Shown: positions 1-31,676, counted from the first letter of the stretch. The stretch is DNA of 33,285 nt from Promethearchaeia archaeon (GCA_029856105.1 JAHQWH010000107.1:1-33285), one strand, 5' to 3'. Notes: generated by a model not told the origin, from the letters alone. Numbers and translations are program-made.

Positions 1-1
1 A

Positions 2-214
2 ATCTTTGTAAATTAAAGTCGCCCTGGTTAAAGAGTCGGTCTCGAAAAAATCTTGAGCTTGCCTCGCAACCCCGTAAAGAGCGGCGCCGATCGAGCTTAA
101 GTCCCAATAATTTAACTTACGGTCGAACCGGGAATCGATCGCTATTATCTTTGCGTCTTGGTCGATGGCAATTAGCCCGTAAATGTAGTTGGATATATAG
201 TTGGATATAACCAT
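2..214 (-). CDS. Roadblock/LC7 (LAMTOR/MglB-like) domain protein, partial (runs off the window edge; 5' end probably fused or truncated)
   Basis: Not in the ORF track because it has no stop in the window. Hand translation: MVISNYISNYIYGLIAIDQDAKIIAIDSRFDRKLNYWDLSSIGAALYGVARQAQDFFETDSLTRATLIYKD. This matches the roadblock pattern: beta-hairpin (YGLIAIDQDAKIIA), long amphipathic helix (LSSIGAALYGVARQAQDFF), then a beta strand (LTRATLIY). The in-frame ATG at 214 lies inside the neighbouring ORF. Confidence 0.7.
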   Translation of the reverse strand, partial: MVISNYISNYIYGLIAIDQDAKIIAIDSRFDRKLNYWDLSSIGAALYGVARQAQDFFETDSLTRATLIYKD

Positions 215-3200
215 CCAGTAATTACGAATTCGTCGTTAAAGTCGCCTAAAGCATCGTCTAACACGTCCCCGAATTGAACGTAATCAAAGTCCGAATAAAT
301 AGCAGCTCCTTGCTCGGGATCTGGCCTTTCGGATTCGAATTTAATTTTCATGTTATCTAAATCGGTTTGAGTCGCGGATAGACCCGTCCACGTGAAAGTG
401 TGCCAACCAGGACTAGTTCCCAAATCGAGCTGTTTTGCCCCAAGCCAACTTCCGCAATACAAATTAATTGTAGAATCAATAATAGTTTCATTGCCATACA
501 CTTTTACTTGAACCTGATTTACTGTTCCACTTTGCACGTCAAGATAACCCATGTTAAACTCGTCAGTAACATTTCCAGAACCAGTACTTACGGTATAAAT
601 AAAATCGCTCGAGGTACTAGGAGCGGTAGGCTCTTCGACTGCATCGTTTAATAGGTCCCAATGATTGCTTCCGCCAGATGTTTCCCATTCTGTAGTTACG
701 TCGCCATCAGGACGCACAACGCCACTATCTTGAACTTGGCTTCCACCCCCAACTGAGGGAAATTGCACGATCGATGCCGAGTAAAGTTTTTCCTGACCAT
801 TATCGCTTTCGGTAAAAGTTATCGTATCGACCGCGGTAAGTTGATACATTATGCTACCCCTAGGTAGTGCGGTTCCAGTCCCGTCCATCGATGCTTGAGC
901 ATATATGCTCGTTGTATCCATACTATCAACGCTTGTAATCGTTTCTGTCCACACGTTTTCTTCTGAGCCTCCAGAACCTTTGTAAAAGGAATAATGATCG
1001 ACTTTCATGACAGCCCCTGTGGATTGCGTGTTTTCAACTATCCAGCACACTTTATAGCGATTGCCAGAAGTTGCAGAATTTCTGATGCGGATTTGCGTAT
1101 TACTGATTATTTCAATGTTGTCCCCCGCATCATCGAGCCCCGTCGCGTCGTTGTCGGTTCGGTATTGCTGGTGCATAAAAGCTTTGGAATAGTTAAGCAA
1201 ATTAACTCCTCCCTCGCTGGTCAAAGAAACATCGCTATAAGCAGTATTATAATTCGAAGTAGTCCATGCCGTAGAGCATTCTGTAGATATATCTAACCGT
1301 TGAACGTCTCGCCAATTCGAGCCAGTAAACTCTACTACTGCGTAAGAGACGCCATCGGCACTATCTACGGATTTACCGCGAGTGAATCTCGGAGTGTAGG
1401 GTCCAGAACCCGTTAGCTCGGCGGAAAATAACGATTCCCACCAGTCGCCCCTTCCCGTATCAGCTGCTTTCTGACCAGTAATGAATACAACAACTCGATT
1501 AGGATTAGACACGGTTGATATCGAAGAACCGTCGCAAGTTGCGGTTGTCCCGCTACAAGTCGCAGTATCAACGCCTCTTACTATCAGTTCGTTGGCACCT
1601 CCGCTAGACCCTATATATTGAAGAATCTCCCAAGTAACTCTGCAATCGTTGGAAGTTCCAGTTCTTTCGAAAGTTATAGAAGTTCCAATATTGCTTGGGT
1701 TTTGTATTCTTACTCCAAAATCGTCCTGATTCTGGTTTCCTCCTGCACTAGTCCTACCCATTCCGGTTAATCTCGTGTTAGTAATGCGAATAAAACAAGT
1801 GGTTGAATCTTGACCGGATTCTAAGGCGTAATCGGTTCCTTCGGTAATAGTTACCGTACCAGAACTCGAACTAATGATGGTTGTCCCCCTAATAACTTTA
1901 AAATCTTGACCACCTCCTCCTCCTGTAGAATATTCGTAGGAAACATTAGCATAGGCGGCAAATACATTTGATCCGACAGTTTCTATTTCTTGATAATCAA
2001 TAATGCCAGTTCCGTCAAATTCAAGACCGTAATCGTTTTTTCCGTCCGTCCAAGTCGTATTACCTTCTAACGTGCCCTCGTAATTGTGATGAGTCGAATC
2101 GAAGGTGCTATATCCTAAGTTTTCGTCAAATTTTGCCCAGAAATCTAAAGAATCAGGAGGGGTGTAACTACTCTGGTGCGCTTTCAAAAGGTCGTATATG
2201 GTAAAAGGCCAGTCAGGATAGAGGTCTTCGTTATTATCGAGGAAATATCTCCCATTTTCTGCGTCAAACTCTAATCCGGCATACTCGACGTAGTTCATAT
2301 GGTTATAAAAACCGTCTTCTGCCCGAGATATCTTAACTAACATATTCTGCTCGATCGAGCCGTAAACTTTATGGGTGTAATAAAAGGTTCCGTCTTTTTT
2401 TGTAGTAACGGTTGCAATCTTTTCGTAACGATCGTTTTGTTCTAAGTATAAATCTAACTTTTCGACAGGTAAAGGTTCTTTAATGGTGTTCACTAGCTTT
2501 CCATCGAACACGACCGTCCACGAGCCGTCGTCGGGGTGCTCAAAAGTGTATACAGCGCCGTAATATTTCGAATCCAATACGTCTTCAAAAATATCGTTTG
2601 AGATTACCGTCAAGTCGTCTTTAGCGATATTTATTTCGTAAACTTTTGGAATAGAGGTTCTAAAGGAAAACCCAGTGAGAACGGTGTAAGTAATTTCTGC
2701 TTCGTAGGTTCCAGGCATAAGGTCAAGCTCGTTTAAGTTTACTTCGGTTATTAACTCGCGAGCTTCTAAAGGACCGTTTAAGTAAGGAGAAAGAACGCTG
2801 TAGGACCTCTTTGCGTAATATCCTTCTATAGGGAGCACTTCTTTTGGGATTAATTCCAGCCGAACCCGAGCAGATTGCCCAAGTAACGGCGATACGTCGC
2901 ATTTAATTACGAACTTACCGTTAATCGAAAGCTCTTCCAAGTCGTCTAAGCCGGGAAGGTAATTTAAGCTAGAAAAATCTATCGAGCTTGTAGATAACCT
3001 TTCTTCTGGAGATACGTATGCGAACTCGTACGCTGGGTTTTGAACCGAGAACATTGAATTAACTCCAAAAGTTATCGGAAATATTATGAGAAACACTAAA
3101 ATTAAAAGAGCTGCTCGCATGTTTTTGTCGTAAACGACCACTACGCTTTTCTTTGGGGTTCTAATTCCTCTGCTTTTTTGTTTTTGTCTTTTTAATTCTC

Positions 3201-4083
3201 TAACTATCTTACGAGTTATCGTTTTGCTCTTAAAAGTAAAGGCAAAAATTATTAAAGTTAACATTGCTGGAGCCACGACAGAAGAGTAAGGGTCGAAAAA
3301 ATAAGTCCAAATAAAAACTCCTCCTAAGATTAGCGATAAAACCGTCAATATTGGGAACTTAAACTTGTGATAAAAGATCGAAAGAGTTCCATACCTAAAA
3401 CTACCTTTCGAGTTTAGCGGAATTTTGTTTGTATTGATCCTAAGCCGTCTTTTTTTCATACGATGGGATTGAAACGCGGCTAAAGGAGTGCAAGTCGCTG
3501 CCACAACCATCCACTCTAAATTAACGAATAGAGCCACGATGGCAAACAGTAAAATGGGGGATATAAACAAGTAAAAGAGACTTTTAACTGAAAACACGTA
3601 ATTTTCGATAGAAAGGTAAAGATATACCAAATAAACGAATACTTGCAGGTAAAGAAATCCAGAAATAACTTCCAACGGAAAAGAAAACGTCTCGGGAGAA
3701 ATAAAAGTCATTAACGATAGAAAAGTTATCCCAAAAATCGCTAAAAATTTAGCCGTATTTGGCGCGATAGATTCTTTAAAAGTTTTTTTAACTCGTTTTT
3801 TTACAGACCTTGATTTTTTATTCGCTTGATATTTTTCGTAGGAACGACTAACCGACTTTCTTTTCCTTTTAACGCTTTTTAGAACAGACCTATGGTTTTT
3901 TAATTTTCTTAAACGCTTTCGAACCTTCTTTTTTAGAATTTTTGCCTCAACAACAACGCGTAAGACATCTGAACCTCCCGAATACCCTATACATTCTTGA
4001 ATAATATTGCGGATTAAAATCTTCTCGGTTGAAATAATATTTTCGTTAAAATAAGACTCAAAACTTACTGTTCGACGCAGAAC
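172..4083 (-). CDS. Fragment of a giant membrane-anchored surface protein (Lys/Arg-rich region, ~6 TM helices, beta-rich ectodomain, LamG-like jelly-roll with nested insertions); truncated at both ends
   Basis: Track ORF is 172..3711, but the frame stays open for 124 more codons to 4083 without an ATG (...ESYFNENIISTEKILIRNIIQECIGYSGGSDVLRVVVEAKILKKKVRKRLRK...TAKFLAIFGITFLSLMTF). The LamG start motif FWAKFDENLG...GTLEGNTTWTDGKNDYGLEFDG is present, and its continuation DYVQFG...FVITGWLYPT is cut off at the 12-bp repeat. Confidence 0.7.
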   Translation of the reverse strand, partial: VLRRTVSFESYFNENIISTEKILIRNIIQECIGYSGGSDVLRVVVEAKILKKKVRKRLRKLKNHRSVLKSVKRKRKSVSRSYEKYQANKKSRSVKKRVKKTFKESIAPNTAKFLAIFGITFLSLMTFISPETFSFPLEVISGFLYLQVFVYLVYLYLSIENYVFSVKSLFYLFISPILLFAIVALFVNLEWMVVAATCTPLAAFQSHRMKKRRLRINTNKIPLNSKGSFRYGTLSIFYHKFKFPILTVLSLILGGVFIWTYFFDPYSSVVAPAMLTLIIFAFTFKSKTITRKIVRELKRQKQKSRGIRTPKKSVVVVYDKNMRAALLILVFLIIFPITFGVNSMFSVQNPAYEFAYVSPEERLSTSSIDFSSLNYLPGLDDLEELSINGKFVIKCDVSPLLGQSARVRLELIPKEVLPIEGYYAKRSYSVLSPYLNGPLEARELITEVNLNELDLMPGTYEAEITYTVLTGFSFRTSIPKVYEINIAKDDLTVISNDIFEDVLDSKYYGAVYTFEHPDDGSWTVVFDGKLVNTIKEPLPVEKLDLYLEQNDRYEKIATVTTKKDGTFYYTHKVYGSIEQNMLVKISRAEDGFYNHMNYVEYAGLEFDAENGRYFLDNNEDLYPDWPFTIYDLLKAHQSSYTPPDSLDFWAKFDENLGYSTFDSTHHNYEGTLEGNTTWTDGKNDYGLEFDGTGIIDYQEIETVGSNVFAAYANVSYEYSTGGGGGQDFKVIRGTTIISSSSGTVTITEGTDYALESGQDSTTCFIRITNTRLTGMGRTSAGGNQNQDDFGVRIQNPSNIGTSITFERTGTSNDCRVTWEILQYIGSSGGANELIVRGVDTATCSGTTATCDGSSISTVSNPNRVVVFITGQKAADTGRGDWWESLFSAELTGSGPYTPRFTRGKSVDSADGVSYAVVEFTGSNWRDVQRLDISTECSTAWTTSNYNTAYSDVSLTSEGGVNLLNYSKAFMHQQYRTDNDATGLDDAGDNIEIISNTQIRIRNSATSGNRYKVCWIVENTQSTGAVMKVDHYSFYKGSGGSEENVWTETITSVDSMDTTSIYAQASMDGTGTALPRGSIMYQLTAVDTITFTESDNGQEKLYSASIVQFPSVGGGSQVQDSGVVRPDGDVTTEWETSGGSNHWDLLNDAVEEPTAPSTSSDFIYTVSTGSGNVTDEFNMGYLDVQSGTVNQVQVKVYGNETIIDSTINLYCGSWLGAKQLDLGTSPGWHTFTWTGLSATQTDLDNMKIKFESERPDPEQGAAIYSDFDYVQFGDVLDDALGDFNDEFVITGWLYPTIYPTTFTG
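186..209. repeat. Perfect 12-bp tandem direct repeat (TAGTTGGATATA x2) at a gene-fusion junction
   Basis: 186-197 and 198-209 are identical. The repeat sits exactly where the LamG-coding frame stops looking like LamG and the roadblock frame begins. Confidence 0.9.
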
Positions 4084-7000
4084 CTAATTACGAGCGATAC
4101 ACCCCCGTTTTTGGTCAAGAACCCATGCTCGAATACATTACTGGACCAGAATACGCGTTAGATCAAATCAAATTGCGAGATTCTTATTTGTTTAGGCAAA
4201 ACACTTTAGGCTATTTAACTAAGAAAGTCAGGCAAGCGTCGAACGGAAGTTTAACAACCATTAAAGCCACTTGCGTAGACGGACAGCCTCAATACGTTTT
4301 TACCACGGGAAACGACGTAGTTCCAAATTCAGCTTTGTTCCAACCTCTAATCGTTAGCCCTGAGAGGTACGAAGAATTGGAGAGTAGAAATTTAGTAGAC
4401 GGGTATATCGTAGTAGACGTGCAAGCTTCAAGCTCATCCAGCTCGCAAGGCATTGATTCCAACGAATTGACAACCGAAGAGAGGAGCTTATATTTCGGAA
4501 AGATACCCCTCGCAGACGTTTTTGGAGGGTTTGATTACCCGATTAAAAGCATCGAAATGTTTGGAATCAGCGACGACCAAGTTGTCGATTCTCGCTCGCT
4601 TACGACCTCAGAATACAACGTAAGCTTGGGCAACTTGTATTTTACCCGCGAGCTGAAAGAATTAATACCGTTTTTTGCCAACAAAATACCAATATATTCC
4701 CAAGAGTGTTATTATAAATTCGTAATAAAAGTGGCAAAAATAGTTCCCGACGACGGTTCCGAAAACGCCAATAGAAACGCCCTTAGCATAGCAACTACTT
4801 ACGCGGTAATGGATTATTTCGACCAGTACACCTACGCCCAGACTTCTGCTCAGATGATCGCAGAGGTGGGATATACGGAGATTATGACGATTACTTCGAC
4901 CGCGATCTCGGCTCCGTTCGTAGCTTTAGGGGCCTACGCTGCAAAAGTTTCGCAAGAAGCCTCGGCAACAGCCACCAAAATCGTGGTGAAAGCCACGTCA
5001 AAGACCACTCAACAAGCTACAATATTCGCTTTAGATACCCTAATTTTCGAGATAGTTAAGCGAGCGGTTATAGGCACGATTGCAGAAACCGTGGAAGAAA
5101 TCGTGGTTGACGGGTTCTTCGAGACCGCCATCCAGAGCGCAGTGCGAATGGCTGGGGGGTCCAGCGCCGCTGGGCACTGGGTTTCGACTCTGTTTACTTC
5201 TCTCAGAGAGACCGCAAACTTTGGCTACTTAACGGGTAGCACCGGAGTACAAGCGCAACAAGGGTTCGCTGGACAAGTTCAGAATCTTGAAACTTACGTT
5301 TCGAATGGGATGGCGTTAAAAGGCGAAACGTCTTTAGCGCGGTTCTCAACCGATTACGAACAATATATAACGGCAAAAATGGATGAGATAGGGAATATAG
5401 GAGAGACCTTGACGGAATCTAAAATCTCACTCGGACGAATACTTGCCACCGGAATCTTTACGGGGCTTTCTTTGTTAGCGCCTTCTCTCGCCGGGTTTAA
5501 CTTGTACGCCATCAGCAAACTCGTTGGGGGTATCGGCACCAGAATCGACGCGAAAACGCAGAACAAGTTCTTAGCCTCGAGAAACTCGATGATGCTATTA
5601 AAAGACGCTATAGAGATTGAGAAACAAGAGGTAGATCTGGGCAAGAAGCCTATAAATACGCAACCCGAAAATAATTTGCCAAAAAACATTCTTAGAGTTT
5701 CAAACTTGCAAGAAGGCCCATTAAATGTAGAAAACAATTTTTTTGGTGCTAAAGGTGCAATTTCTACAGGAATTGTTGCGCTTGATCCTACAGATAAGTA
5801 CGCCGCAATGGATAAAGAGCAAGAAATTGCCGAATCGCAAAGAATTAAAGCACATTTAGCAAAAGTTGCTGAGATTGATAAAGGGTACAACGCAGAAGGA
5901 GAATTTGCAGGAATAATCTCTAAATTAGAAGAAAGTGGAAAGTTCAAGAAAAGTCAATTGACCAGAATTCAAAAGGCTTTAGAAAAGTTAAAAGGAAAAT
6001 ATTACGACGAAAAAACTATTCTCGATTCCTCTACAGAAGGTCTCTATGGGGCTATTAACCTACACGTTATGAAAGCCGTTGAAGAAAAAATTATTAATCA
6101 AGAACTACTTTCTCCAGTAGAGCGCGATATTTTTAATGCGAAAATCTTGTTATTAAATATAAAGACAATGTCCTCCGGAAGATATCCCGCCCAGTATCTT
6201 AGAAGAGAATGGGATGGTTTAAGTCCAAGTCCTTACTATCCCGCACTTAAAGGCTTTGCTGATAACTTGGCTGATATTTTGAGTTACTATAAAGTCGCAA
6301 AGACGGATTCGGAGATTGATTCAATCCTCGGTTTTGATCCTAAACACTCGTTAAATGAGATGGTTTCAGTTTTGAGTGGGTATACTTTGAAAGGAACAAA
6401 ATTGAAATCCTTCAGCTTTCAGATTGATGAAAAAACATTAGATCGTTGGTTTGTGCGTTTAGAAGAAGAAATTAGTCTTGATTCTAAGTTTAAGTTAAGG
6501 GACAAGAGATTAATAATGAGAGATCTAAAAGATTTGTTTGACGCGACTTATAAGAAGTTTGGTTACGAAGCTTATCATCCTTTGTATAGATCTGTTCGAT
6601 TGATGCTTGCAAGGGTTGGGGAAGTCTTAGTAGACGCTGGAGCAATTGAAAAAAATACTTTCAGTAATTTAGAGGAGTTAACTGGTTTGAATTTAATAAA
6701 TTTATATAATTATCTACTGACAAATCCTAGATGCAATCCTGATATTGATCCTACTCTAGCTCTAAAAGGTAAAGCAATAGAAAAAGCAATTGAGAAAACT
6801 AAAAAAGGGAACGCTGAATTTACATCTGAGCACGAGAAACAAATAGAGGAAATTATAGGTAATCATATAGTTCAACTGCTAGACTTTAGAAAAGGTAGAA
6901 AACTTTTAGAGAGTTATCGGCCCTCCTATCGTTTAGATTTGCTTAGGAATATTGTTGATAGATGCAGTATATTGCAAAAGGTTCGGTATAAATATGAATT

Positions 7001-8375
7001 GGCAAATCTCTTATTAGGCGATTTTGATTTTAGCACTAATTTTCTTAAGCCGCATAAGGACATGGATCAGAGTAAACCTCATTTAGAAGAAGTTTTCCAG
7101 ATTATAATTAACTCGTTCAGGTGGAGCAAAAAAACATTCTCAGACCTAGGAATATCTGTTACTGACTCTGAACTGAGAATTTTTAAATTTATTATAAACA
7201 AGGAAGTAAAAAAATGGGTTTTTAACGTTGAGAATCTTGAGACAAGTTGGGTTCGATATATCTCCAAGTTAAAACCCGAAAGAGTTATAGGAGCCCCAAC
7301 ATCAATGAAGATGGACTATGATCTCGTTTTTGCCCTTTTCCAAGCATCCTTAATTCACGAAGATAATCCAAAATTAACTTTTAGTGATATGGCAGCTAAC
7401 AAATTTTTTGATCGTTCCAAAAATCTTATAGCAAATCTAAGGCGGGGGATAGGATTCAGTCCCGAAGCGGTTAGGAAAATGTTAATTACCACCATTGCTT
7501 GGATCAAAACGGAAGCTGCGAAAGACCCGAATAGCTATAAATTGAAATATTATTTTAGTCTTCAAGCTCACATCCAATTTTACGCTATGAAGCATCATAT
7601 GAGTCTCATGAAGCCCAAAGGCGGTGGAAGCACAAGATTCTTCAATGGAAGAAGATTTGGATACGATTATATCGTAGCTTATCACGTTGTTGAGGGGATT
7701 GGAAAACATTTAGGAATTGATCCGTTATTTTTCTCCGCAATAAAAGACGAATCGTTTCATATGACTAAAACACTTCGTAACAAGCTTAAGGATTTAGGAG
7801 AAAAAGTTCTAGTATTCATCAGACACCATTTTCGGGACGACCCAGTGGGTAGGGATTCGTTCTTGGCTAAAGATAACTTGATTACTGACGCTTCAAAACA
7901 CGTTTCATGGGAATCTCTTGACGAGAGAGATTCTTTAATCGTTCTCGAAGGATACGAAAAATTGATCCGTATGAAAGGCACAGGTCAGAGAATGCCTGGA
8001 ACTTCGGGAATCAACGAGATTACGAGAAAAGACATCGAGCAAGTCTTCCGCGGAGAAGAGTGGGTATACGCTCGGTGGTATTCGGACAGAGATTTTACTT
8101 CCAATCTTAAAGAATTTAACAACAAGAGACGAGATATTCGATCAATGACGCTTGATAAATTTATCAAAACATATAATCCCATTGCTTACGCTAGGTTTTA
8201 CGAAAACATCCTTAAAGATAAACGACCTCAACTTCAATTATTTCTGTCCGAACTTCACCCCACCCTCGATATATCAAGCGTAATTGCCGCTGGAACGGAC
8301 AGCATCTATCTTAAGGAAATAACGAGAGCTTTCAGCTGGCTTCTGCGACAAGATAATTACCCGATTAAGATCTAA
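4050..8375 (+). CDS. C-terminal fragment of a giant protein; candidate polymorphic toxin with Ala/Gly-rich hydrophobic helices and a C-terminal HNH-like motif
   Basis: Track ORF is 4125..8375 (1416 aa); the frame is open back to 4050 (NKTQNLLFDAEPNYERYTPVFGQEPM) and no SD or promoter is evident. Hydrophobic segments include TAISAPFVALGAYAA and ILATGIFTGLSLLAPSLAGFNLYAI. RHHFRDDPVGRDSFLAKDNLITDASKH lies at 7821-7901. The CDS is well supported; the toxin call is inference. Confidence 0.6.
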   Translation, partial: NKTQNLLFDAEPNYERYTPVFGQEPMLEYITGPEYALDQIKLRDSYLFRQNTLGYLTKKVRQASNGSLTTIKATCVDGQPQYVFTTGNDVVPNSALFQPLIVSPERYEELESRNLVDGYIVVDVQASSSSSSQGIDSNELTTEERSLYFGKIPLADVFGGFDYPIKSIEMFGISDDQVVDSRSLTTSEYNVSLGNLYFTRELKELIPFFANKIPIYSQECYYKFVIKVAKIVPDDGSENANRNALSIATTYAVMDYFDQYTYAQTSAQMIAEVGYTEIMTITSTAISAPFVALGAYAAKVSQEASATATKIVVKATSKTTQQATIFALDTLIFEIVKRAVIGTIAETVEEIVVDGFFETAIQSAVRMAGGSSAAGHWVSTLFTSLRETANFGYLTGSTGVQAQQGFAGQVQNLETYVSNGMALKGETSLARFSTDYEQYITAKMDEIGNIGETLTESKISLGRILATGIFTGLSLLAPSLAGFNLYAISKLVGGIGTRIDAKTQNKFLASRNSMMLLKDAIEIEKQEVDLGKKPINTQPENNLPKNILRVSNLQEGPLNVENNFFGAKGAISTGIVALDPTDKYAAMDKEQEIAESQRIKAHLAKVAEIDKGYNAEGEFAGIISKLEESGKFKKSQLTRIQKALEKLKGKYYDEKTILDSSTEGLYGAINLHVMKAVEEKIINQELLSPVERDIFNAKILLLNIKTMSSGRYPAQYLRREWDGLSPSPYYPALKGFADNLADILSYYKVAKTDSEIDSILGFDPKHSLNEMVSVLSGYTLKGTKLKSFSFQIDEKTLDRWFVRLEEEISLDSKFKLRDKRLIMRDLKDLFDATYKKFGYEAYHPLYRSVRLMLARVGEVLVDAGAIEKNTFSNLEELTGLNLINLYNYLLTNPRCNPDIDPTLALKGKAIEKAIEKTKKGNAEFTSEHEKQIEEIIGNHIVQLLDFRKGRKLLESYRPSYRLDLLRNIVDRCSILQKVRYKYELANLLLGDFDFSTNFLKPHKDMDQSKPHLEEVFQIIINSFRWSKKTFSDLGISVTDSELRIFKFIINKEVKKWVFNVENLETSWVRYISKLKPERVIGAPTSMKMDYDLVFALFQASLIHEDNPKLTFSDMAANKFFDRSKNLIANLRRGIGFSPEAVRKMLITTIAWIKTEAAKDPNSYKLKYYFSLQAHIQFYAMKHHMSLMKPKGGGSTRFFNGRRFGYDYIVAYHVVEGIGKHLGIDPLFFSAIKDESFHMTKTLRNKLKDLGEKVLVFIRHHFRDDPVGRDSFLAKDNLITDASKHVSWESLDERDSLIVLEGYEKLIRMKGTGQRMPGTSGINEITRKDIEQVFRGEEWVYARWYSDRDFTSNLKEFNNKRRDIRSMTLDKFIKTYNPIAYARFYENILKDKRPQLQLFLSELHPTLDISSVIAAGTDSIYLKEITRAFSWLLRQDNYPIKI

Positions 8376-8376
8376 A

Positions 8377-8409
8377 TTTTTGTTTTATTTTTTTGTTTTA
8401 CGGTTTTTT
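8377..8409 (+). terminator. Oligo-T tract, possible archaeal terminator
   Basis: TTTTTGTTTTATTTTTTTGTTTTACGGTTTTTT immediately follows the stop at 8375. Confidence 0.35.
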
Positions 8410-8454
8410 AAAAGACTATCTACATTTAAATAAGAACAATGCGGTGTTATTATT

Positions 8455-8886
8455 GTGAAAGATAAAAGAATTATCAGCGTAAAGAATCCTAAATTGCGGA
8501 AAATCCGCAACGAGATGCGAGAAGTGCTACTTCAAGCTAGAGATGCAGAGTTAGATAAAATAACATATGAAATGGAATTAATGGAATTCGATAAAGATGA
8601 CAATCGAATAACTATCGATGATTTGACTCCTTCGCAACTAGAGCGGTTTAGAGAACTCCAGCATTTGAAGAACGAGAATAGAGAGATCGGTCGGAAGTCG
8701 ATTTGCATGTGTTATAACTGCGGCAAACCTGACCAAGACATGTTTTACAACTATCCTTACCGTGCGTGGTTCTGCGTCGAATGCGTGAAATTCTTAAAGA
8801 AGGGGCACGCAAAGATGAAGGTCAAGAAAGCCCACGGTGAATACACTTGCGATCCCGACGACGATTTCGGTCAGAGCTTTTTCTAA
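8455..8886 (+). CDS. Small zinc-binding protein (CxCxxC...CxxC), candidate immunity or partner protein
   Basis: 143 aa, GTG start, helical N-terminal half, motif ICMCYNCGKPDQDMFYNYPYRAWFCVEC. Co-oriented 79 bp downstream of the giant ORF and with the same CG-rich codon style as that ORF's 3' end. Confidence 0.65.
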   Translation: MKDKRIISVKNPKLRKIRNEMREVLLQARDAELDKITYEMELMEFDKDDNRITIDDLTPSQLERFRELQHLKNENREIGRKSICMCYNCGKPDQDMFYNYPYRAWFCVECVKFLKKGHAKMKVKKAHGEYTCDPDDDFGQSFF

Positions 8887-8943
8887 ATTTCTCAAAATTT
8901 TTTCTTTAATTTTAATTTTTTTTATTTTTTCTCAAAAAAATTT
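8887..8943. terminator. T/A-tract region between convergent genes; right boundary of the island
   Basis: Long T runs plus an A7 run between the stops at 8886 (+) and 8944 (-); composition changes across it. Confidence 0.45.
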
Positions 8944-9825
8944 TTATTTTTCTAAAATCCCCGAAAAATAACCCACACAATATCCATATCCACCCTTAAT
9001 ATCGCTACTAGTATAATATTTTAATAATTTACCTTTTTTTCCGTTTAATTTTTCACAAATTAACATTAAAGTTGTTATTGTTTGGGCTCCGCATACGGTT
9101 GTTTTTGAAGCAGCTGAAAGAGTTTTTTTAGAATTAAATTCTACAAAAGCATCAATAACATCTTGATCAAATTTCTTAAACTCTTTTAATTGATTTGTAT
9201 TAAAAATTTCTTTATGTGACATATCAGACGATGCAATAATAACAACATCTTTATTTAACGTCTTAATTGCAGCAGAAATATCAGAAGCTATTTTTTCAAA
9301 TACGCTATAATCCCTTCTAATTCCTATTTTAAGCGTTACTATTTTTACGTCTTTATCTTTAGCACAATATTTAATGAAGGGTAATTGTATTTCAATATTG
9401 TGTTCTTGTTCCATGGAGCCGGTGAAGGCAGAAGGATCTTCTACAATAATTTCACTTGTATCTAAAATCTTTTTAGATAATTCATCGTCAATTTGTAAGT
9501 TTCCTAAAGGCGTTTCCCAGGCGCCATCTCCTAACAGAGCCACCTTTCCATAGCCAACATGATCAGTCCCTAATACGATTACTGTATCTGGGATTTTCTC
9601 TTTAAATAAATTCAAATACGTAAAGGCGGCACATCTTCCAGAAAAAGTATATCCCGCATGAGGAGATACCCCTCCAATTATAGTCCTACTGTCTTGATTT
9701 AGCGTTTCAGGTAGTTTACCAGGTCCAAACTCTTTATCGGAAAAAACATATTCTAGGTTTTTTATTAAATCTTCTTTTTTACCAGGGTACCAACTTCCCG
9801 CATGTGATGCTTTTCTTATAACCAA
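8944..9825 (-). CDS. MEMO1 family protein (AmmeMemoRadiSam system protein B), intact metal site
   Basis: Motifs RKASHAGSWYP, SPHAGY, GTDH, EHNIEIQLPF, ASSDMSH, TVCG, VGY. The start is more likely TTG at 9825 after AGGTGA than the track GTG at 9834. Confidence 0.92.
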   Translation of the reverse strand: MVIRKASHAGSWYPGKKEDLIKNLEYVFSDKEFGPGKLPETLNQDSRTIIGGVSPHAGYTFSGRCAAFTYLNLFKEKIPDTVIVLGTDHVGYGKVALLGDGAWETPLGNLQIDDELSKKILDTSEIIVEDPSAFTGSMEQEHNIEIQLPFIKYCAKDKDVKIVTLKIGIRRDYSVFEKIASDISAAIKTLNKDVVIIASSDMSHKEIFNTNQLKEFKKFDQDVIDAFVEFNSKKTLSAASKTTVCGAQTITTLMLICEKLNGKKGKLLKYYTSSDIKGGYGYCVGYFSGILEK

Positions 9826-26581: not shown

Positions 26582-27721
26582 ATGGTCGATCCCATTCTTC
26601 TCCCGGATTTTTCCTTATTTCTCAAAGAAAAAAAGCAAGAAGGCGTTAAAATTATTGCTTTTTTGGCTCACGATAATATTCCCGAAGAGCTGATAGATGC
26701 AGCGGGTTTCTTTCCTTTAAGGATGATGTTTGGAGGGAATGACGATTTGATGGAAGCTAGTCACGATTTTTTACCTCCATCTACATGTGCATTTGCTCAA
26801 TCTTGTATTGGATTATTTTCTGCTAAACCAAATGACTTCAGATTTTTAGATTTGGTGGATTATTTTATCGTTTCAAACCACTGCGTATCAGATGTTTGTG
26901 CTTCAGAAATAATTACTAAATATTTTAATATCTCTCGTTTAAATTTTTACGTACCGTATATGACGGATGAAAGTAGTTTAAAATATTTCAAGTTAGAACT
27001 ACAAAATTTAAAGGAGAAGCTTGAAGATATTATTGGAGAAAAAATTTCTGACGAAAAATTATCTGAGAGTATTAAGAAGTATAATGATTTTAAGAAAAAA
27101 ATATCGCAAGTTAATGATTTAGAGATTTTAGGCTCAGAAAAATTAAAAATAATTCAAAAAGCAATATTATATGGTCCAACATTCCTACCTGATTTAGAAA
27201 AGTACATTGAAGAAGTTAAAAACAGTCCACCTCAAAACCTTGGTACATCTAAAGATATTTTATTTACAGGATGTTCGATCTTCATCAATGATAACTTAGT
27301 TGATTTAATCGAAGAAGGAGGGGGAAATATTGTTTATTTCGATACATGGATTGGAAATCACTATTATTCACAAGTTATAGATGATGCCTTGATAAATTCA
27401 AACAAAGATCCTTTAGATTTATTGGTGCTGAGATTTAAAAATAACACGTATGGAGACCATTCAGTACCCAACTTCTTGCAACAAAAAGTATCTTTGATTG
27501 AAAATTATTCTAAGAACTATACAAGAAAGACGGGTAAAAAATTAGGCGTATTCAATCATATAATTAAATTTTGCGACCACATATCGTTAATGGCTTCTTT
27601 CTTGAAAAATGAGTTACAAGAAAAAGGAATACAAGTATTGAATTTAGAGAGAGATTATTCTCGGGCTAATCGAGGGCAGCTCTCAACAAGAATAGAAGCG
27701 TATTTGGAGATGATGAGATGA
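26582..27721 (+). CDS. 2-hydroxyacyl-CoA dehydratase family subunit (HgdB/FldC/BcrC-like)
   Basis: PEELIDAAG, Cys ligand motifs STC / NHC / KFCD, and C-terminal GQLSTRIEAYLEM. Confidence 0.88.
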   Translation: MVDPILLPDFSLFLKEKKQEGVKIIAFLAHDNIPEELIDAAGFFPLRMMFGGNDDLMEASHDFLPPSTCAFAQSCIGLFSAKPNDFRFLDLVDYFIVSNHCVSDVCASEIITKYFNISRLNFYVPYMTDESSLKYFKLELQNLKEKLEDIIGEKISDEKLSESIKKYNDFKKKISQVNDLEILGSEKLKIIQKAILYGPTFLPDLEKYIEEVKNSPPQNLGTSKDILFTGCSIFINDNLVDLIEEGGGNIVYFDTWIGNHYYSQVIDDALINSNKDPLDLLVLRFKNNTYGDHSVPNFLQQKVSLIENYSKNYTRKTGKKLGVFNHIIKFCDHISLMASFLKNELQEKGIQVLNLERDYSRANRGQLSTRIEAYLEMMR

Positions 27722-29073
27722 GTTTAATTGCTGACGAAATAATAACATTTAGCTCCGTACTAAGAATTGCTTACAATTTTTTAGCTGGTCGTAATGATTT
27801 AAAAAGGAAAAAGTTCCGAGAGAAAAAAAAATTAGTTGGAGTATCCTTACCATTTTCAGATCTAGCTTTCGCGGCAGATACTGTACCTGTATTTCCTATA
27901 AGGATGCACACTTTTGAAATAAGTAATTATCTCGCGTATTTAGGTTCTGCGTCTAGTATTTTAGGCTGGAATAATGTTTCTAACATTTTAAGTTTTGTTA
28001 AAAAACTTGGAATATCAGAAATCAGTAAAATTGTTGATGATATTATTGAAGATGTAATTGACACGATTAATAAAAAATACAACGAGATGTATGATATTGC
28101 AATTGAGAATGGCACCTCAAGCGACTTCTGTTATGGTTTAAAGGGTTTAACTGGTATGCATTTTTCCAAAGGTCGCAATTTAGACGCGTGTCTTAACCTT
28201 ACGATTCGATGTAGCGCTTTTAATAAATATATGGAATCCCTAAAATGTATTAATCAAGATCCCAAGCAAATTTGGATCGATATTCCCCCAAGAAATATTG
28301 GAAATGCTTTAGAAATTTTAACTGATAATATAACAAACGCCATAAGAGAATTTAAGAATTTGACTGGCAATACGATAACAGATAATCAATTGAGAGAGCA
28401 TTTTAAAATTAGTAATCAAGTAAAAAAATCATATAAAACAATAATTTACGATATTAGCACTTCTGATTTTTATCCGTGCAATCCAGCAACATTTAGCGAA
28501 ATTATGTCTTTAATGAATATTACCTTTAATGATTATAACTCTAATTCGATACGATACAGGGATAATTTAGCATCGCTAGTAAAAGAAATGCGGGAAAGAA
28601 TAAGAAAGGGAATTGGAATGGACGTGTCTAAAATGCCACGTATTTTTGTAACGCCCATATTCGGAGGATGGGAACCAAAAACCCACGATATTATATATGA
28701 ATTAGGCGGGAGAGCGATTTATGCTGACTGGGAAATATTAAAATTATTAGAGGAAATACCCGTAGCTAATCATTTAAATCCTTTTGAAGAATACGCTCGA
28801 TTTCTTTTAAATGCAACAGAATCAGGGATTGGTTGCGATAACGACACTTTAACTGACTCATATTTGAGAGTGGCTAAAAAATTAAATGCTGATGGTCTTA
28901 TATTTATTCAATTGTTTGGATGTCATTCTATTTCAAATTGTTATACAATGCTGAGAGAGAAAGTGCGTCGAGAACTTGAAATTCCCACAACAGCAATCAC
29001 ATTTAATAAAATTGGCGAAAATGTCGAACAGGTCAAAACTAGGCTCGGGGCTTTCATGGAAATGTTCAAATAA
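27718..29073 (+). CDS. 2-hydroxyacyl-CoA dehydratase family subunit (HgdA/FldB/BcrB-like)
   Basis: ATGA overlap with the previous gene; SDFC, IRC and FGCH cysteines; QVKTRLGAFMEM terminus. Confidence 0.85.
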   Translation: MSLIADEIITFSSVLRIAYNFLAGRNDLKRKKFREKKKLVGVSLPFSDLAFAADTVPVFPIRMHTFEISNYLAYLGSASSILGWNNVSNILSFVKKLGISEISKIVDDIIEDVIDTINKKYNEMYDIAIENGTSSDFCYGLKGLTGMHFSKGRNLDACLNLTIRCSAFNKYMESLKCINQDPKQIWIDIPPRNIGNALEILTDNITNAIREFKNLTGNTITDNQLREHFKISNQVKKSYKTIIYDISTSDFYPCNPATFSEIMSLMNITFNDYNSNSIRYRDNLASLVKEMRERIRKGIGMDVSKMPRIFVTPIFGGWEPKTHDIIYELGGRAIYADWEILKLLEEIPVANHLNPFEEYARFLLNATESGIGCDNDTLTDSYLRVAKKLNADGLIFIQLFGCHSISNCYTMLREKVRRELEIPTTAITFNKIGENVEQVKTRLGAFMEMFK

Positions 29074-29075
29074 TT
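28669..29075 (+). repeat. ~400-bp direct repeat, copy 1 (copy 2 at 31272-31678)
   Basis: Long identical runs, e.g. TGGGAACCAAAAACCCACGATATTATATATGAA and GAAGAATACGCTCGATTTCTTTTAAATGCAACAGAATCAGGGATTGGTTG. Confidence 0.9.
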
Positions 29076-29098
29076 TTGAATAATTATGGAATAATACC

Positions 29099-30406
29099 TT
29101 AATATGTAGGTACCTCCTCTTTTACGATAGTAATACTTTTGTCTAATTTCTCATTATCCTTATTGATTTTTAGAATTTCCGTTGATTTAGAAACATCGAG
29201 TATAAAATGCCACTTATTTAAAAACTCACTATCCATTTTAACCATTTTATTTCTTTTCATTATTTCGCCATATTCGCTTTTTGCTGATTTTACCATATTA
29301 TTTTTAAATGAAGATGATGAATGCTCACTATTACCTATTCGCATAATATTTTCCAAATCATTTTGTTTTTGTGGTTTTGAATCCTCGTTTTCGTCAAAAT
29401 TATGCCACAATTCATTATTGAAAGGAGGTACTACCATTATAGGAATAATATAATCTACTTCTCTAACCAAATGGGTTCTCAAATAGTTTTTAATTTCTAG
29501 GTCATATCCAAATTGGGATACTAAAATTAATTGTGGAATGATAATATTACATTCATTTTTTTTATCATTCTTGAATTTCTCCGAAAACGACTTAATTTCA
29601 TTAACTAACTTCAATAAGTTCATATATTTAAATGGATTTGATGTTCTATTACAATAGATAAAAATAATCTCATAATCATAGGGATTAATATCTTCAGTAC
29701 CTTGAGTGTTGAGTGTTGATTTAGATTCTTTAGTAGTAATTATCAATAAATCTATTATCCTTTGAAAAATATCACTCTCTATTGCAAAATTATAATTACG
29801 ATACACTTTTGTGTCCTTTATATTGGTCTTAATTATATTATTTTCAATTAGTTCAATATAAGGAAAATAAATTTTATCCCATTCTTCCCACTTTCCATCA
29901 ATTTGGTTTATAGAAAAAGGAAATTTCATGATTTCATCTGAAAAATCAATTGTATGATATAAGTGCTTAACTATAACATTTAGCATCCTTGTTTCGAGCG
30001 AAAATATCTTCCTTTTTATTTGAGCTTTCTCTAATTGAATTTTAGAAAGTTCTGTAAATGTGTTGCAAAATTTATTTTTAACTCCCTCCTTTAATAATCG
30101 AATCAATTTTCCTTCAATTAGGTTTAAACAATTATGCGATTCTTGTTGTATATTTAATTCTTCAGCTAATGATTGAGTTCTGAACACTAAAATGGATATG
30201 CAGGTCCTCTCAAAATTATTATTTATTGAAGACTGAACCACTGAAATAAGACCTTTTTCACTATGACCTATAATTAATAGATAATCCTCAGAAATAATAG
30301 ATTTCTTAGAAATCTTGAATTGAGATTTAAAAATTTTTTGGATAGTTGAAGAAATCTGGTTTATCTTTATTAATTTCTCAATAATTTTTGTCCTTATTAT
30401 AATCAC
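29099..30406 (-). CDS. Hypothetical protein, possible degenerate PD-(D/E)XK (Mrr-like) fold in the C-terminal half
   Basis: 435-aa ORF in very AT-rich DNA, so likely real. IIDLLI...IIFIYCN...LILVSQFGYD echoes the Mrr-like pattern, without ExK. Confidence 0.55.
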   Translation of the reverse strand: MIIIRTKIIEKLIKINQISSTIQKIFKSQFKISKKSIISEDYLLIIGHSEKGLISVVQSSINNNFERTCISILVFRTQSLAEELNIQQESHNCLNLIEGKLIRLLKEGVKNKFCNTFTELSKIQLEKAQIKRKIFSLETRMLNVIVKHLYHTIDFSDEIMKFPFSINQIDGKWEEWDKIYFPYIELIENNIIKTNIKDTKVYRNYNFAIESDIFQRIIDLLIITTKESKSTLNTQGTEDINPYDYEIIFIYCNRTSNPFKYMNLLKLVNEIKSFSEKFKNDKKNECNIIIPQLILVSQFGYDLEIKNYLRTHLVREVDYIIPIMVVPPFNNELWHNFDENEDSKPQKQNDLENIMRIGNSEHSSSSFKNNMVKSAKSEYGEIMKRNKMVKMDSEFLNKWHFILDVSKSTEILKINKDNEKLDKSITIVKEEVPTY

Positions 30407-31097
30407 TCTCCTATTTTTTTCATTTTTTTTACGAAAATATCACATGAGAGTATTTGATTGCTAATTATACCTTAAGAAATTAGTCATATTATAATTAACA
30501 ATTTAGCTTTTTTCTATCGAAAAAAGACAAAATTAATTTGATACAAACAATGCCTTTCTTATTATTATTTAAGCCAAATTCCTAAAAATTTTACAGATGT
30601 GACAAAATCAAATACTCAATATATCTAATATATATAAAGGAGTGATGTTATTTAATTTTATGCATAAATATATAATTTTATAAATACAGAGAATTGAGAA
30701 TTAAATATTTTATAAGATTTCAATTAGTAAACTAATAATTTTAAAAATAAACCTTTTATTTAAAACTCCAAAACATTTTGTTATGATAATCATGCATTAA
30801 TTAAATAAAATAGTTTAATCCTTGAACTAATTCTGTAAAAAGTGTTGTACCTGTCGCAATACCAATACTTCCAGTTAAAAAAAATTTTGTGATTGTTCCT
30901 AAGACAAGTGTTATATTTCTTTATATTATACTTTTAATTCAACTATTTTTTCACTCGACTTTACTAGAGTCCATGATGATATAGTAATTTGAAACCTTAC
31001 AATTTAGCTCATAGTTTTTATTACATCTAAATAATTAGATTTGAATTGTAGTCCTAAAAAATTATTAATTTTAATAGCAACCTGAGATGATCTTAAA

Positions 31098-31676
31098 ACG
31101 AGTTTATTCGCTGATGACGTTGTAAGTTTCACATCTGTTCTTAAAATGGCTTATAACTTTTTAACAGGTAGAAGTCAATTAGTTAAAGAAATGAGAGAAA
31201 GGATCAAAAAAGGTATAGGAATAGATGTTTCTCAAATGCCAAGGGTGTTATTTGCCCCAATGTACCAAGGGTGGGAACCAAAAACCCACGATATTATATA
31301 TGAACTAGATGGGAGAGCGATTTATGCTGACTGGGAGATATTAAAATTTTTAGAGGACATACTCGCATCAAATCATTTAAGTCCTGCCGAAGAATACGCT
31401 CGATTTCTTTTAAATGCAACAGAATCAGGGATTGGTTGTGATAACGACACATTAACGGACTCATATTTGAGAGTGGCTAAAAATTTAAATGCTGATGGTC
31501 TTTTATTTTTTCAATTGTTTGGATGTCACTCTATTTCAAATTTTTATACAATGCTAAGAGAAAAGGTACGCCGAGAACTCGAAATACCAACAACTGCAAT
31601 TACTTTTAATAAAATTGGAGAAAATATCGTACAAATGAAGCCAAGGCTCGGGGCTTTCATGGAAATGTTTAAATAA
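31098..31676 (+). pseudogene. Internally deleted copy of the 27718-29073 dehydratase subunit (192 codons)
   Basis: From ACG 31098: TSLFADDVVSFTSVLKMAYNFLTGRSQL|VKEMRER aligns to MSLIADEIITFSSVLRIAYNFLAGRNDL...LVKEMRER with 259 codons missing in frame. Confidence 0.8.

Follow-up and report, generated by a model that had tools for sequence, protein, structure and literature searches.

The window analyzed here is a 33,285-nucleotide stretch of DNA from a Promethearchaeia archaeon (GCA_029856105.1 JAHQWH010000107.1:1-33285). An open reading frame (ORF) at 4125-8375 on the plus strand encodes P0001, the last ~1,437 codons of a giant protein; intact members of this Lokiarchaeial family are 12,000-20,000 aa long and each encoded by a single ORF. 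It is followed by the gene for P0002, a 143-aa zinc-ribbon protein (8455-8886, plus strand) that is predicted to bind the C-terminal domain (CTD, aa 1165-1416) of P0001. We believe, with a probability of roughly 55%, that the window holds a broken or orphan copy of a polymorphic toxin/immunity-like system. The features discussed below are:

172-3711, minus strand: ORF as called, 1,179 aa; its frame is open upstream to 4083
193..4063, minus strand: inverted N-proximal fragment of a giant gene, with a multi-transmembrane (TM) anchor cluster and the start of the ectodomain, truncated at both ends
4063: head-to-head joint of two giant-gene fragments (probable structural-variant breakpoint)
4125-8375, plus strand: P0001 ORF, 1,416 aa from the first ATG; the frame is open back to 4050
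4125..8375, plus strand: C-terminal part of a giant surface protein, 5'-truncated, with a trunk module and a type-A cassette
4242..4754, plus strand: beta-rich domain of the trunk, aa 40-210; predicted local distance difference test (pLDDT) 83-93 over most of the span in an AlphaFold 2 (AF2) model
4761..5498, plus strand: long helices rich in Ala, Gly and Thr (aa 213-369) and a hydrophobic helix (aa 434-458), from composition and hydropathy
5715..8372, plus strand: exchangeable C-terminal cassette, aa ~530-1416, free of glycosylation sequons
7617..8372, plus strand: conserved CTD, aa 1165-1416, candidate metal-dependent nuclease tip
7815-7913, plus strand: predicted beta-beta-alpha element within the CTD, aa 1231-1263
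8455..8886, plus strand: zinc-ribbon partner gene, 143 aa, GTG start, candidate immunity protein or inhibitor

Two truncated giant-gene pieces meet at position 4063

P0001 is the end of a much larger gene. Residues 22-1414 align to aa 11296-12744 of a 12,745-aa ORF (G068:C7:19221-57455), and in relatives the trunk is the C-terminal end of single ORFs of 9,240-20,619 aa. The database homologues P0004, P0005 and P0008 have 274-1,015 extra N-terminal residues relative to P0001. Homology in the plus frame extends upstream of the ATG (LLFDAEPNYERY in the window, VLFDAEPIYERY in P0004) and begins at nt 4063, directly after a stop codon; the gene is therefore 5'-truncated. Matches to P0001 were found for 163 of 1.84 billion representative proteins (E ≤ 0.001) and in 34 of the 101 genomes of the order, almost all of them in one family.

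The minus-strand ORF is a piece of another part of a giant gene. Its aa 3-569 are 37% identical to aa 1009-1557 of the G068 giant and 39% identical to aa 479-1044 of the giant in genome G062, a region that comprises the second TM cluster and the first part of the ectodomain. Upstream of the called ORF, the minus frame aligns to aa 398-525 of the G062 giant and is homologous up to 4063. Because the homology of both frames ends at nt 4063, two truncated giant-gene pieces meet there head-to-head. An earlier interpretation of this DNA (the sequence-only reading) had suggested a candidate TM-anchored giant toxin. The anchor was borne out for the intact relatives, which have N-terminal TM clusters and to which the fragments are homologous. 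What lies in the window, however, is not an intact toxin gene: a cassette that has lost its 5' part is fused head-to-head to a piece of the anchor region in inverted orientation.

The window is probably a real structural variant of a recombination-prone locus, judging from Logan contigs of four public runs (X1, X2, X4 and X5) that we mapped onto window positions 1-9200. X1 is the probable source of the assembled DNA and hence is not independent. In X1, a single 4,510-nt contig spans 1175-5684 across the joint, with no alternative end at 4063. In X2, X4 and X5, which come from other samples and studies, the contig match ends exactly at 4063 and the right arm is preceded by sequence encoding TYLENPALI, as in P0004 and P0006; therefore, an uninterrupted gene exists in those populations. 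The left arm in X2 runs on into another open frame. Contigs also branch at ~188-193, at 5715 (aa 530; the alternative continuation is present in both X1 and X2), at 6146 (aa 674), and at 8393, just past the stop codon. Sequence across the left joint (1-1778) is unbroken in X5 too, a second sample. We found no repeats or recombination sites at the joints (~190 and 4063), and the two arms share no repeat at the break.

The metagenome-assembled genome (MAG; G000) has no ORF longer than 1,911 aa and no giant ORF. The alternative upstream and downstream arms seen in the reads are absent from it, except for the sequence that follows position 188: contigs from X1 and X4 depart there, and the continuation is on G000:C35 (~35003). 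Positions 1-192 are unlike the giant-gene fragment in context, and the ORF at 2-214 (minus strand) has no Pfam match at E ≤ 0.01. G+C content is 0.35-0.44 in the first ~9 kb versus ~0.30 across the remaining window, which is ordinary archaeal chromosome with two Memo genes, a tRNA-intron endonuclease, an A-type ATPase operon, VIT1 genes and 2-hydroxyacyl-CoA dehydratase genes.

There are other partial copies in the same MAG. A second trunk-truncated type-A cassette lies at G000:C114:26814-31642 (loci L003 and L004), where frame 26929-31182 is accompanied by a P0002-like gene at 31220-31642. Immediately before the cassette is a fragment with a match to Pfam RVT_N (E 4.8e-27), the domain at the N-terminus of group II intron-type reverse transcriptases, and a retroelement may have cut this copy. 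A 1,041-aa paralogue with a partial trunk and another C-terminal type is found at both G000:C10:55532 (plus strand) and G000:C26:7302 (minus strand). The two are apparently the same, with equal length, first 50 residues and profile scores, and the pair appears to be either a duplicated locus or redundant MAG contigs.

Trunk, cassette and glycosylation sequons

The family has a conserved trunk that gives way abruptly to variable C-termini. In successive 100-aa windows, identity between P0001 and P0004 is 94, 74, 80, 75 and 80%, and then 37, 25, 29, 27, 20, 26, 23, 31 and 29%. Identity to P0004 and P0005 is 72-94% in the trunk and drops to 20-37% in the cassette at aa ~500-530; the same step is seen against P0006 and P0008 and coincides with the read branch at nt 5715. 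Against the distant G068 protein, identity is flat (20-45%), with no step. Behind the same trunk are unrelated C-termini, including type B (P0006, P0009, P0010, P0012 and P0013), that of a paralogue on contig C143 of the same genome, and several types of 1,650-1,900 aa. Cassettes are 700-1,900 aa long across the family, and the C-terminal types share segments in a mosaic pattern. Across homologues the C-termini diverge abruptly or are unrelated, which supports the sequence-only reading's trunk followed by variable ends.

The type-B ends have conserved motifs of their own. The last ~200 aa of P0006, P0009, P0010, P0012, P0013 and the product of L068:6452-8680 share H..YE, D..IER, VDYT, K..YQS.D and LLGQK. 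These presumably resemble motifs of PD-(D/E)xK nucleases; the region has no Pfam match.

The helix segment of the trunk (nt 4761..5498) is the best-conserved part of the family, with near-invariant Y250, T255, D329, E333, S354, T358, R361 and E362, and its helices were modeled by AF2 at low to moderate confidence. The beta-rich trunk domain (model m1836fdcad01a) had no match in fold searches. Ala, Gly, Thr and Ser together make up 0.41-0.44 of aa 201-400, as proposed in the sequence-only reading, but clear hydrophobicity is confined to two stretches (aa 298-316 and 434-458) among 19-residue windows of P0001. Lys makes up 10-12% of aa 501-1100. The proposed tip motifs are where they had been placed (GIDPLFF at aa 1197, RHHF at 1233-1236, D1250/N1251 and H1259), but the protein does not end at H1259; it continues for 157 aa, to residue 1416.

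The cassettes lack N-X-S/T glycosylation sequons. In three cassette types there are none: P0001 aa 471-1416 (5.2 expected), G068 protein aa 11740-12745 (7.4 ± 2.2 expected) and G062 protein aa 18700-20619 (17.2 ± 4.1 expected). In contrast, two ectodomains have 140 versus 113 expected and 203 versus 178 expected, and the genome-wide ratio of observed to expected sequons is 1.09 (ORFs of at least 400 aa). Among 156 ORFs with at least 5 expected sequons, four had none, and three of the four are family members. The only long ORF outside the family without a sequon encodes 993 aa (G000:C14:15535, minus strand; 5.8 expected). Such avoidance is hard to explain for a cytoplasmic domain and fits an exported segment that must stay free of glycans; it suggests that the cassette is exposed to the glycosylation machinery.

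The tip and its zinc-ribbon partner

The CTD is a conserved, enzyme-like domain. Among 50-52 aligned homologues, R1233 is conserved in 48, H1234 in 49, H1235 in 44, S1245 in 44, D1250 in 42, T1254 in 41 and H1259 in 46; the motif is therefore not a chance occurrence. Other conserved residues are Y1186, H1187, G1197, D1199, D1208, R1237, D1303, W1313, W1318, N1332, R1357 and D1382, and conservation of this many polar residues over aa 1186-1382 is as expected of an enzyme. The CTD also forms ORFs of its own, 186-279 aa long.

An AF2 model of aa 660-1416 (757 aa; mean pLDDT 84.9, predicted template modeling score 0.71) is almost all helical. DSSP assigns only two strands, aa 1231-1235 (F-I-R-H-H) and 1251-1255, followed directly by a helix (1256-1263) that contains H1259. 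This is consistent with H1234/H1235 and H1259 lying in a beta-beta-alpha arrangement, with H1259, kept in 46 of 50 sequences, at the metal-ligand position of a His-Me finger helix. The 24-residue spacing between H1235 and H1259 is, we assume, that between H103 and H127 of ColE9. Because R-H-H...D...H is conserved on this predicted element, the tip is most likely a metal nuclease of the His-Me finger type. The label 'HNH-like' used in the sequence-only reading is reasonable but unproven: the domain is conserved and HH and H fall on a predicted beta-beta-alpha element, but the defining central Asn fails, and no HNH family matched in the sequence and whole-model fold searches.

The gene for P0002 is linked to the tip. 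It starts 79 nt after the P0001 stop codon on the same strand. Of the 22 CTD-bearing ORFs in the loci that we fetched, 19 are followed at a distance of 22-105 nt by a same-strand P0002-like gene, consistent with the proposed co-occurrence of the small gene and the tip. Of the remaining three, two have a gene for a leucine-rich repeat (LRR) protein instead and one is a fusion scar. Some loci (L036, L037 and L050) consist of a CTD-only ORF (186-279 aa) with a P0002 gene, and paralogues of P0002 occur in tandem, with five around an orphan CTD in G072:C35. The P0002 family is present in 45 of the 101 genomes of the order, all in one family, with up to 7 copies per genome. Its invariant residues are R22, C86, C89, W105, C107 and C110; the ribbon is CxxC-x17-CxxC, and there is a basic N-terminal helix. 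The co-oriented CxCxxC...CxxC gene of the sequence-only reading is thus present with its ribbon, except that the first Cys of CxCxxC (C84) is not conserved in the family.

P0002 is predicted to bind over the proposed active site. Co-folding of the CTD (aa 1165-1416) with P0002 gave an interaction prediction score from aligned errors (ipSAE) of 0.90 (0.90, 0.90 and 0.88 in separate runs) versus 0.00 for the best control. Of 80 solved complexes, 58 attained the mark used for ipSAE, as did 2 of 110 mismatched pairs; these counts are only rough here because our own alignments were used. The runs shared at least 93% of contacts, and the pLDDT of the partner was at least 89. The predicted interface includes aa 1225-1235 and 1256-1261, that is, the H-H/H site. 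These models support binding of P0002 over that site, as had been anticipated for the tip and the 143-aa protein.

Several loci have other arrangements. Where a P0002-like gene is missing, LRR proteins are encoded at L008:4825-6087, L056:4720-6399 and L071:4847-5728 (Pfam LRR_14 and LRR_8, E down to 1e-70); the one in L008 has an N-terminal zinc ribbon as well. The C143 paralogue, with its different C-terminus, also has an LRR protein gene downstream. A 281-aa ORF at L044:5867-6709 (G003:C10) combines a P0002-like N-terminal part with a piece like the C-terminal subdomain of the CTD (W..W..F..L..FN.RK) and resembles a scar left by recombination of a toxin-like gene with a partner gene. After the G068 giant ORF and its partner is an ORF with an actin-like N-terminus (..VVDNGTG..; L028:3277-4428, G068:C7:58276-59427, minus strand). 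Both G003 and G067 appear to have a stand-alone P0002-like gene next to a set of four ORFs (279, 342-345, 354-360 and 371-372 aa) whose lengths equal or are near those of four ORFs beyond the G068 actin-like gene; there is no giant gene in the stretch fetched.

A proposed polymorphic toxin-like system, its rivals and its meaning

The family shares its overall organization with bacterial polymorphic toxins. As in CdiA-CT/CdiI, Rhs, MafB and LXG systems (PMC3482391), a conserved stalk or trunk in a long surface protein switches abruptly to variable cassettes. Among the features by which such toxins are recognized (PMC3482391), we found a conserved carrier or stalk with recombining C-termini; orphan cassettes and extra partner genes, the window and C114 copies being themselves trunk-truncated cassettes; and a gene immediately downstream of the tip that is taken as cognate from its position and predicted binding. 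Orphan modules, multi-copy partner arrays and the LRR alternative (comparable to Imm-LRR) also have bacterial counterparts. Three things known from the bacterial systems are missing here: a known secretion system, a known type of repeat (RHS, FilH) and a known pre-toxin motif (VENN, PT-TG). In addition, the carrier is self-anchored and 12,000-20,000 aa long, the cassettes are 700-1,900 aa, and tip and partner fall outside the described Tox, Ntox and Imm families. The polymorphic toxin layout of the sequence-only reading holds for the trunk, the variable ends and the small downstream gene; no known toxin family matched in the searches, and the copy here is not intact.

The tip can be compared with the DNase domains of colicins E7 and E9, which likewise have an H-H doublet at the end of a strand (a predicted one here), a second strand and a helix with a conserved His, and a tightly bound small inhibitor encoded downstream (a candidate one here). 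Tox-ColE7 is listed with conserved 'HH, H, H' (PMC3482391). Unlike the colicin DNases, with which there is no detectable sequence similarity, the tip has a conserved D1250 in place of a conserved central Asn, the element is embedded in a mostly helical domain of ~250 aa, and the partner is a Cys4 zinc ribbon rather than helical as are Im7 and Im9. Pfam Colicin-DNase (PF12639) had no match in the whole genome at E ≤ 10.

Two archaeal systems are also comparable. VARTIG of Thermococcales (PMC8416519) is a large surface protein whose hypervariable C-terminus recombines and is matched by genes downstream; its layout, too, is like that of polymorphic toxin systems, and a toxin has been demonstrated in neither that system nor this one. 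The variable part of VARTIG is an Ig domain with a putative sorting signal in proteins of less than ~2,000 aa, in contrast to the helical cassette, enzyme-like tip and zinc-ribbon partner found here. The aloposons Otus and Ephialtes of Heimdallarchaeum (PMC8813620) also carry very large Asgard ORFs, and we compared them by context alone. Typical of aloposons are tandem genes for 3,000-6,000-aa proteins that are integrated at a tRNA site and preceded by four genes, one of which encodes a ParA-like ATPase (PMC8813620). The window has no tRNA, tandem giant genes or ParA-like gene, and the giant relatives are single ORFs, and we therefore rejected the link to such mobile elements that had been raised in the sequence-only reading. 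Classical polymorphic toxin systems are reportedly rare in archaea (PMC3482391), and those predicted there are without experimental characterization (PMC8416519). We found no published description of this system in the literature searched, which did not cover a 2019 survey of archaeal polymorphic toxins. By sequence comparison, carrier, tip and partner would all be new families, in an Asgard lineage.

We propose that an intact giant protein (12,000-20,000 aa) would be anchored by its N-terminal TM clusters and would display a glycosylatable ectodomain of ~10,000 aa or more. The ectodomain would end in the trunk module (the beta domain, the Ala/Gly/Thr-rich helices and one hydrophobic helix), followed by an exchangeable cassette of 700-1,900 aa that, in the type found here, would end in a ~250-aa, enzyme-like nuclease domain. 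The adjacent zinc-ribbon protein would act as an immunity protein, covering the active site and neutralizing the tip, which we infer to be toxic. A rearrangement would have removed the middle of the giant gene in the window, leaving the last 1,437 codons and, abutting them at nt 4063, the inverted anchor fragment. Such a copy could not be displayed on the surface, and the orphan cassette with its immunity gene could be a reservoir for recombination, a source of retained protection, or both. Of this account, the truncation with its joint, membership in the family, the cassette boundary, the conserved site, the linkage of the two genes, the predicted binding and the avoidance of sequons come from computation, and nuclease activity, toxicity, export, delivery into another cell and immunity are inferred. 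More tentatively, and in our estimate doubtfully, the family might carry out contact-dependent antagonism without a secretion machine: the Ala/Gly/Thr-rich helices would insert the glycan-free cassette into the membrane of a neighbor and deliver a new His-Me-like nuclease, a new zinc-ribbon immunity family or an LRR protein would neutralize it, and truncated copies would be a store of cassettes that recombine into a master gene.

Several results weigh against a toxin/immunity-like system. No Pfam match was found in 64 family members at E ≤ 1 among the families listed, and P0001 had no sequence match in the PDB as a single sequence or a profile. Searches of the whole 757-aa model with Foldseek and VIA returned helical-bundle matches only and no toxin family, and barely probed the tip; the ESM Atlas gave no usable match for the tip. 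Pfam, PHROGs, NCBIfam and PADLOC gave nothing for P0001, P0002 or P0003 other than noise (ERCC4, E 0.085; PDC-S64, E 0.001). Known toxin domains were also absent, by Pfam, from 14 alternative C-termini (eight representatives totaling 9,340 aa and six type-B proteins). The commonest residues in the N1251 column are Leu (21), Gln (13) and Ile (11), and Asn is not among the top three. The cassettes are unusually long, Lys-rich (8-12% in the one here) and helical. Just past the hydrophobic helix (aa 434-458), the sequence carries a net positive charge, which would fit a cytoplasmic tail, and how such a tail could be delivered to another cell is hard to picture. Conservation of P0002 is fairly high, and in at least one locus (L061) it follows a C-terminus in which no CTD was detected. 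Lastly, the window copy has no anchor or export signal of its own, and the joint at 4063 is bridged only in X1, the possible source of the assembly.

The main rival, which we consider unlikely, is that the cassette is the cytoplasmic effector tail of a giant adhesin or receptor, with an enzyme-like tip that acts inside the producer (in contact or damage signaling, suicide or abortive infection) and with P0002 as a resident inhibitor or regulator rather than an antidote. The Lys content and helicity of the cassettes, the positive flank and the lack of a known toxin domain in any C-terminal type would all fit such a tail, as would the Cys4 zinc ribbon of P0002, a type typical of cytoplasmic proteins; predicted binding of an inhibitor fits equally well. 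The evidence on topology is mixed, with N-terminal TM clusters and a sequon-rich ectodomain in relatives, sequon avoidance in the cassette, and weak hydrophobic helices with a positive flank in the C-terminal part. However, complete avoidance of sequons in three cassette types would be unexpected in a cytoplasmic tail given the genome-wide ratio, the hydrophobic segments are weak and absent from some members (G062, for example), and the identity step, the unrelated cassettes, the orphan pairs of CTD and P0002 and the P0002 arrays point to conflict between strains.

We consider two further explanations less probable. It is improbable that the locus is an assembly chimera or a dead, functionless remnant in which the ORF from the ATG at 4125 is fortuitous. 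Such an origin would fit the truncation of both fragments (no promoter or start context was established), the bridging of the joint in X1 only, and a MAG of 238 contigs with 6% contamination and no giant ORF. Against it, the independent Logan assembly of X1 runs through the joint from 1175 to 5684 and shows no other end at 4063, no repeat is common to the two arms where they meet, the left joint is contiguous also in X5, and neither the 1,416-codon frame nor the P0002 gene is disrupted; a dead copy would in any case leave the conclusions about the family unchanged. It is quite improbable that the giants are variable surface proteins without an antagonistic role, with ends that serve adhesion, kin recognition or antigenic variation, roles that have been proposed for VARTIG, and with P0002 as an assembly factor, chaperone or regulator. 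The polymorphic C-termini with no recognizable toxin domain would be expected of such proteins, and VARTIG has a comparable layout with no identifiable toxins (PMC8416519). Yet the tip has a dense set of catalytic-type residues (R, H, H, R, S, D, T and H) rather than the pattern of a binding surface, the partner is predicted to cover exactly that site, and in avoiding sequons the cassettes behave oppositely to the exposed ectodomain.

ORFs of ~1,400 aa of this kind should be annotated with caution, as fragments or orphan cassettes of far larger genes, and MAG assemblies break and rearrange at the module boundaries of giant genes. The pair of tip and partner is small, soluble and directly testable in Escherichia coli or Haloferax. 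If the toxin/immunity-like interpretation is true, the family would combine a delivery principle not seen in bacteria with two new families, one of nuclease-like fold and one of inhibitors. The giant genes are among the largest ORFs in Asgard archaea and are currently unexplained; if we are correct, they would be weapons or kin-discrimination devices.

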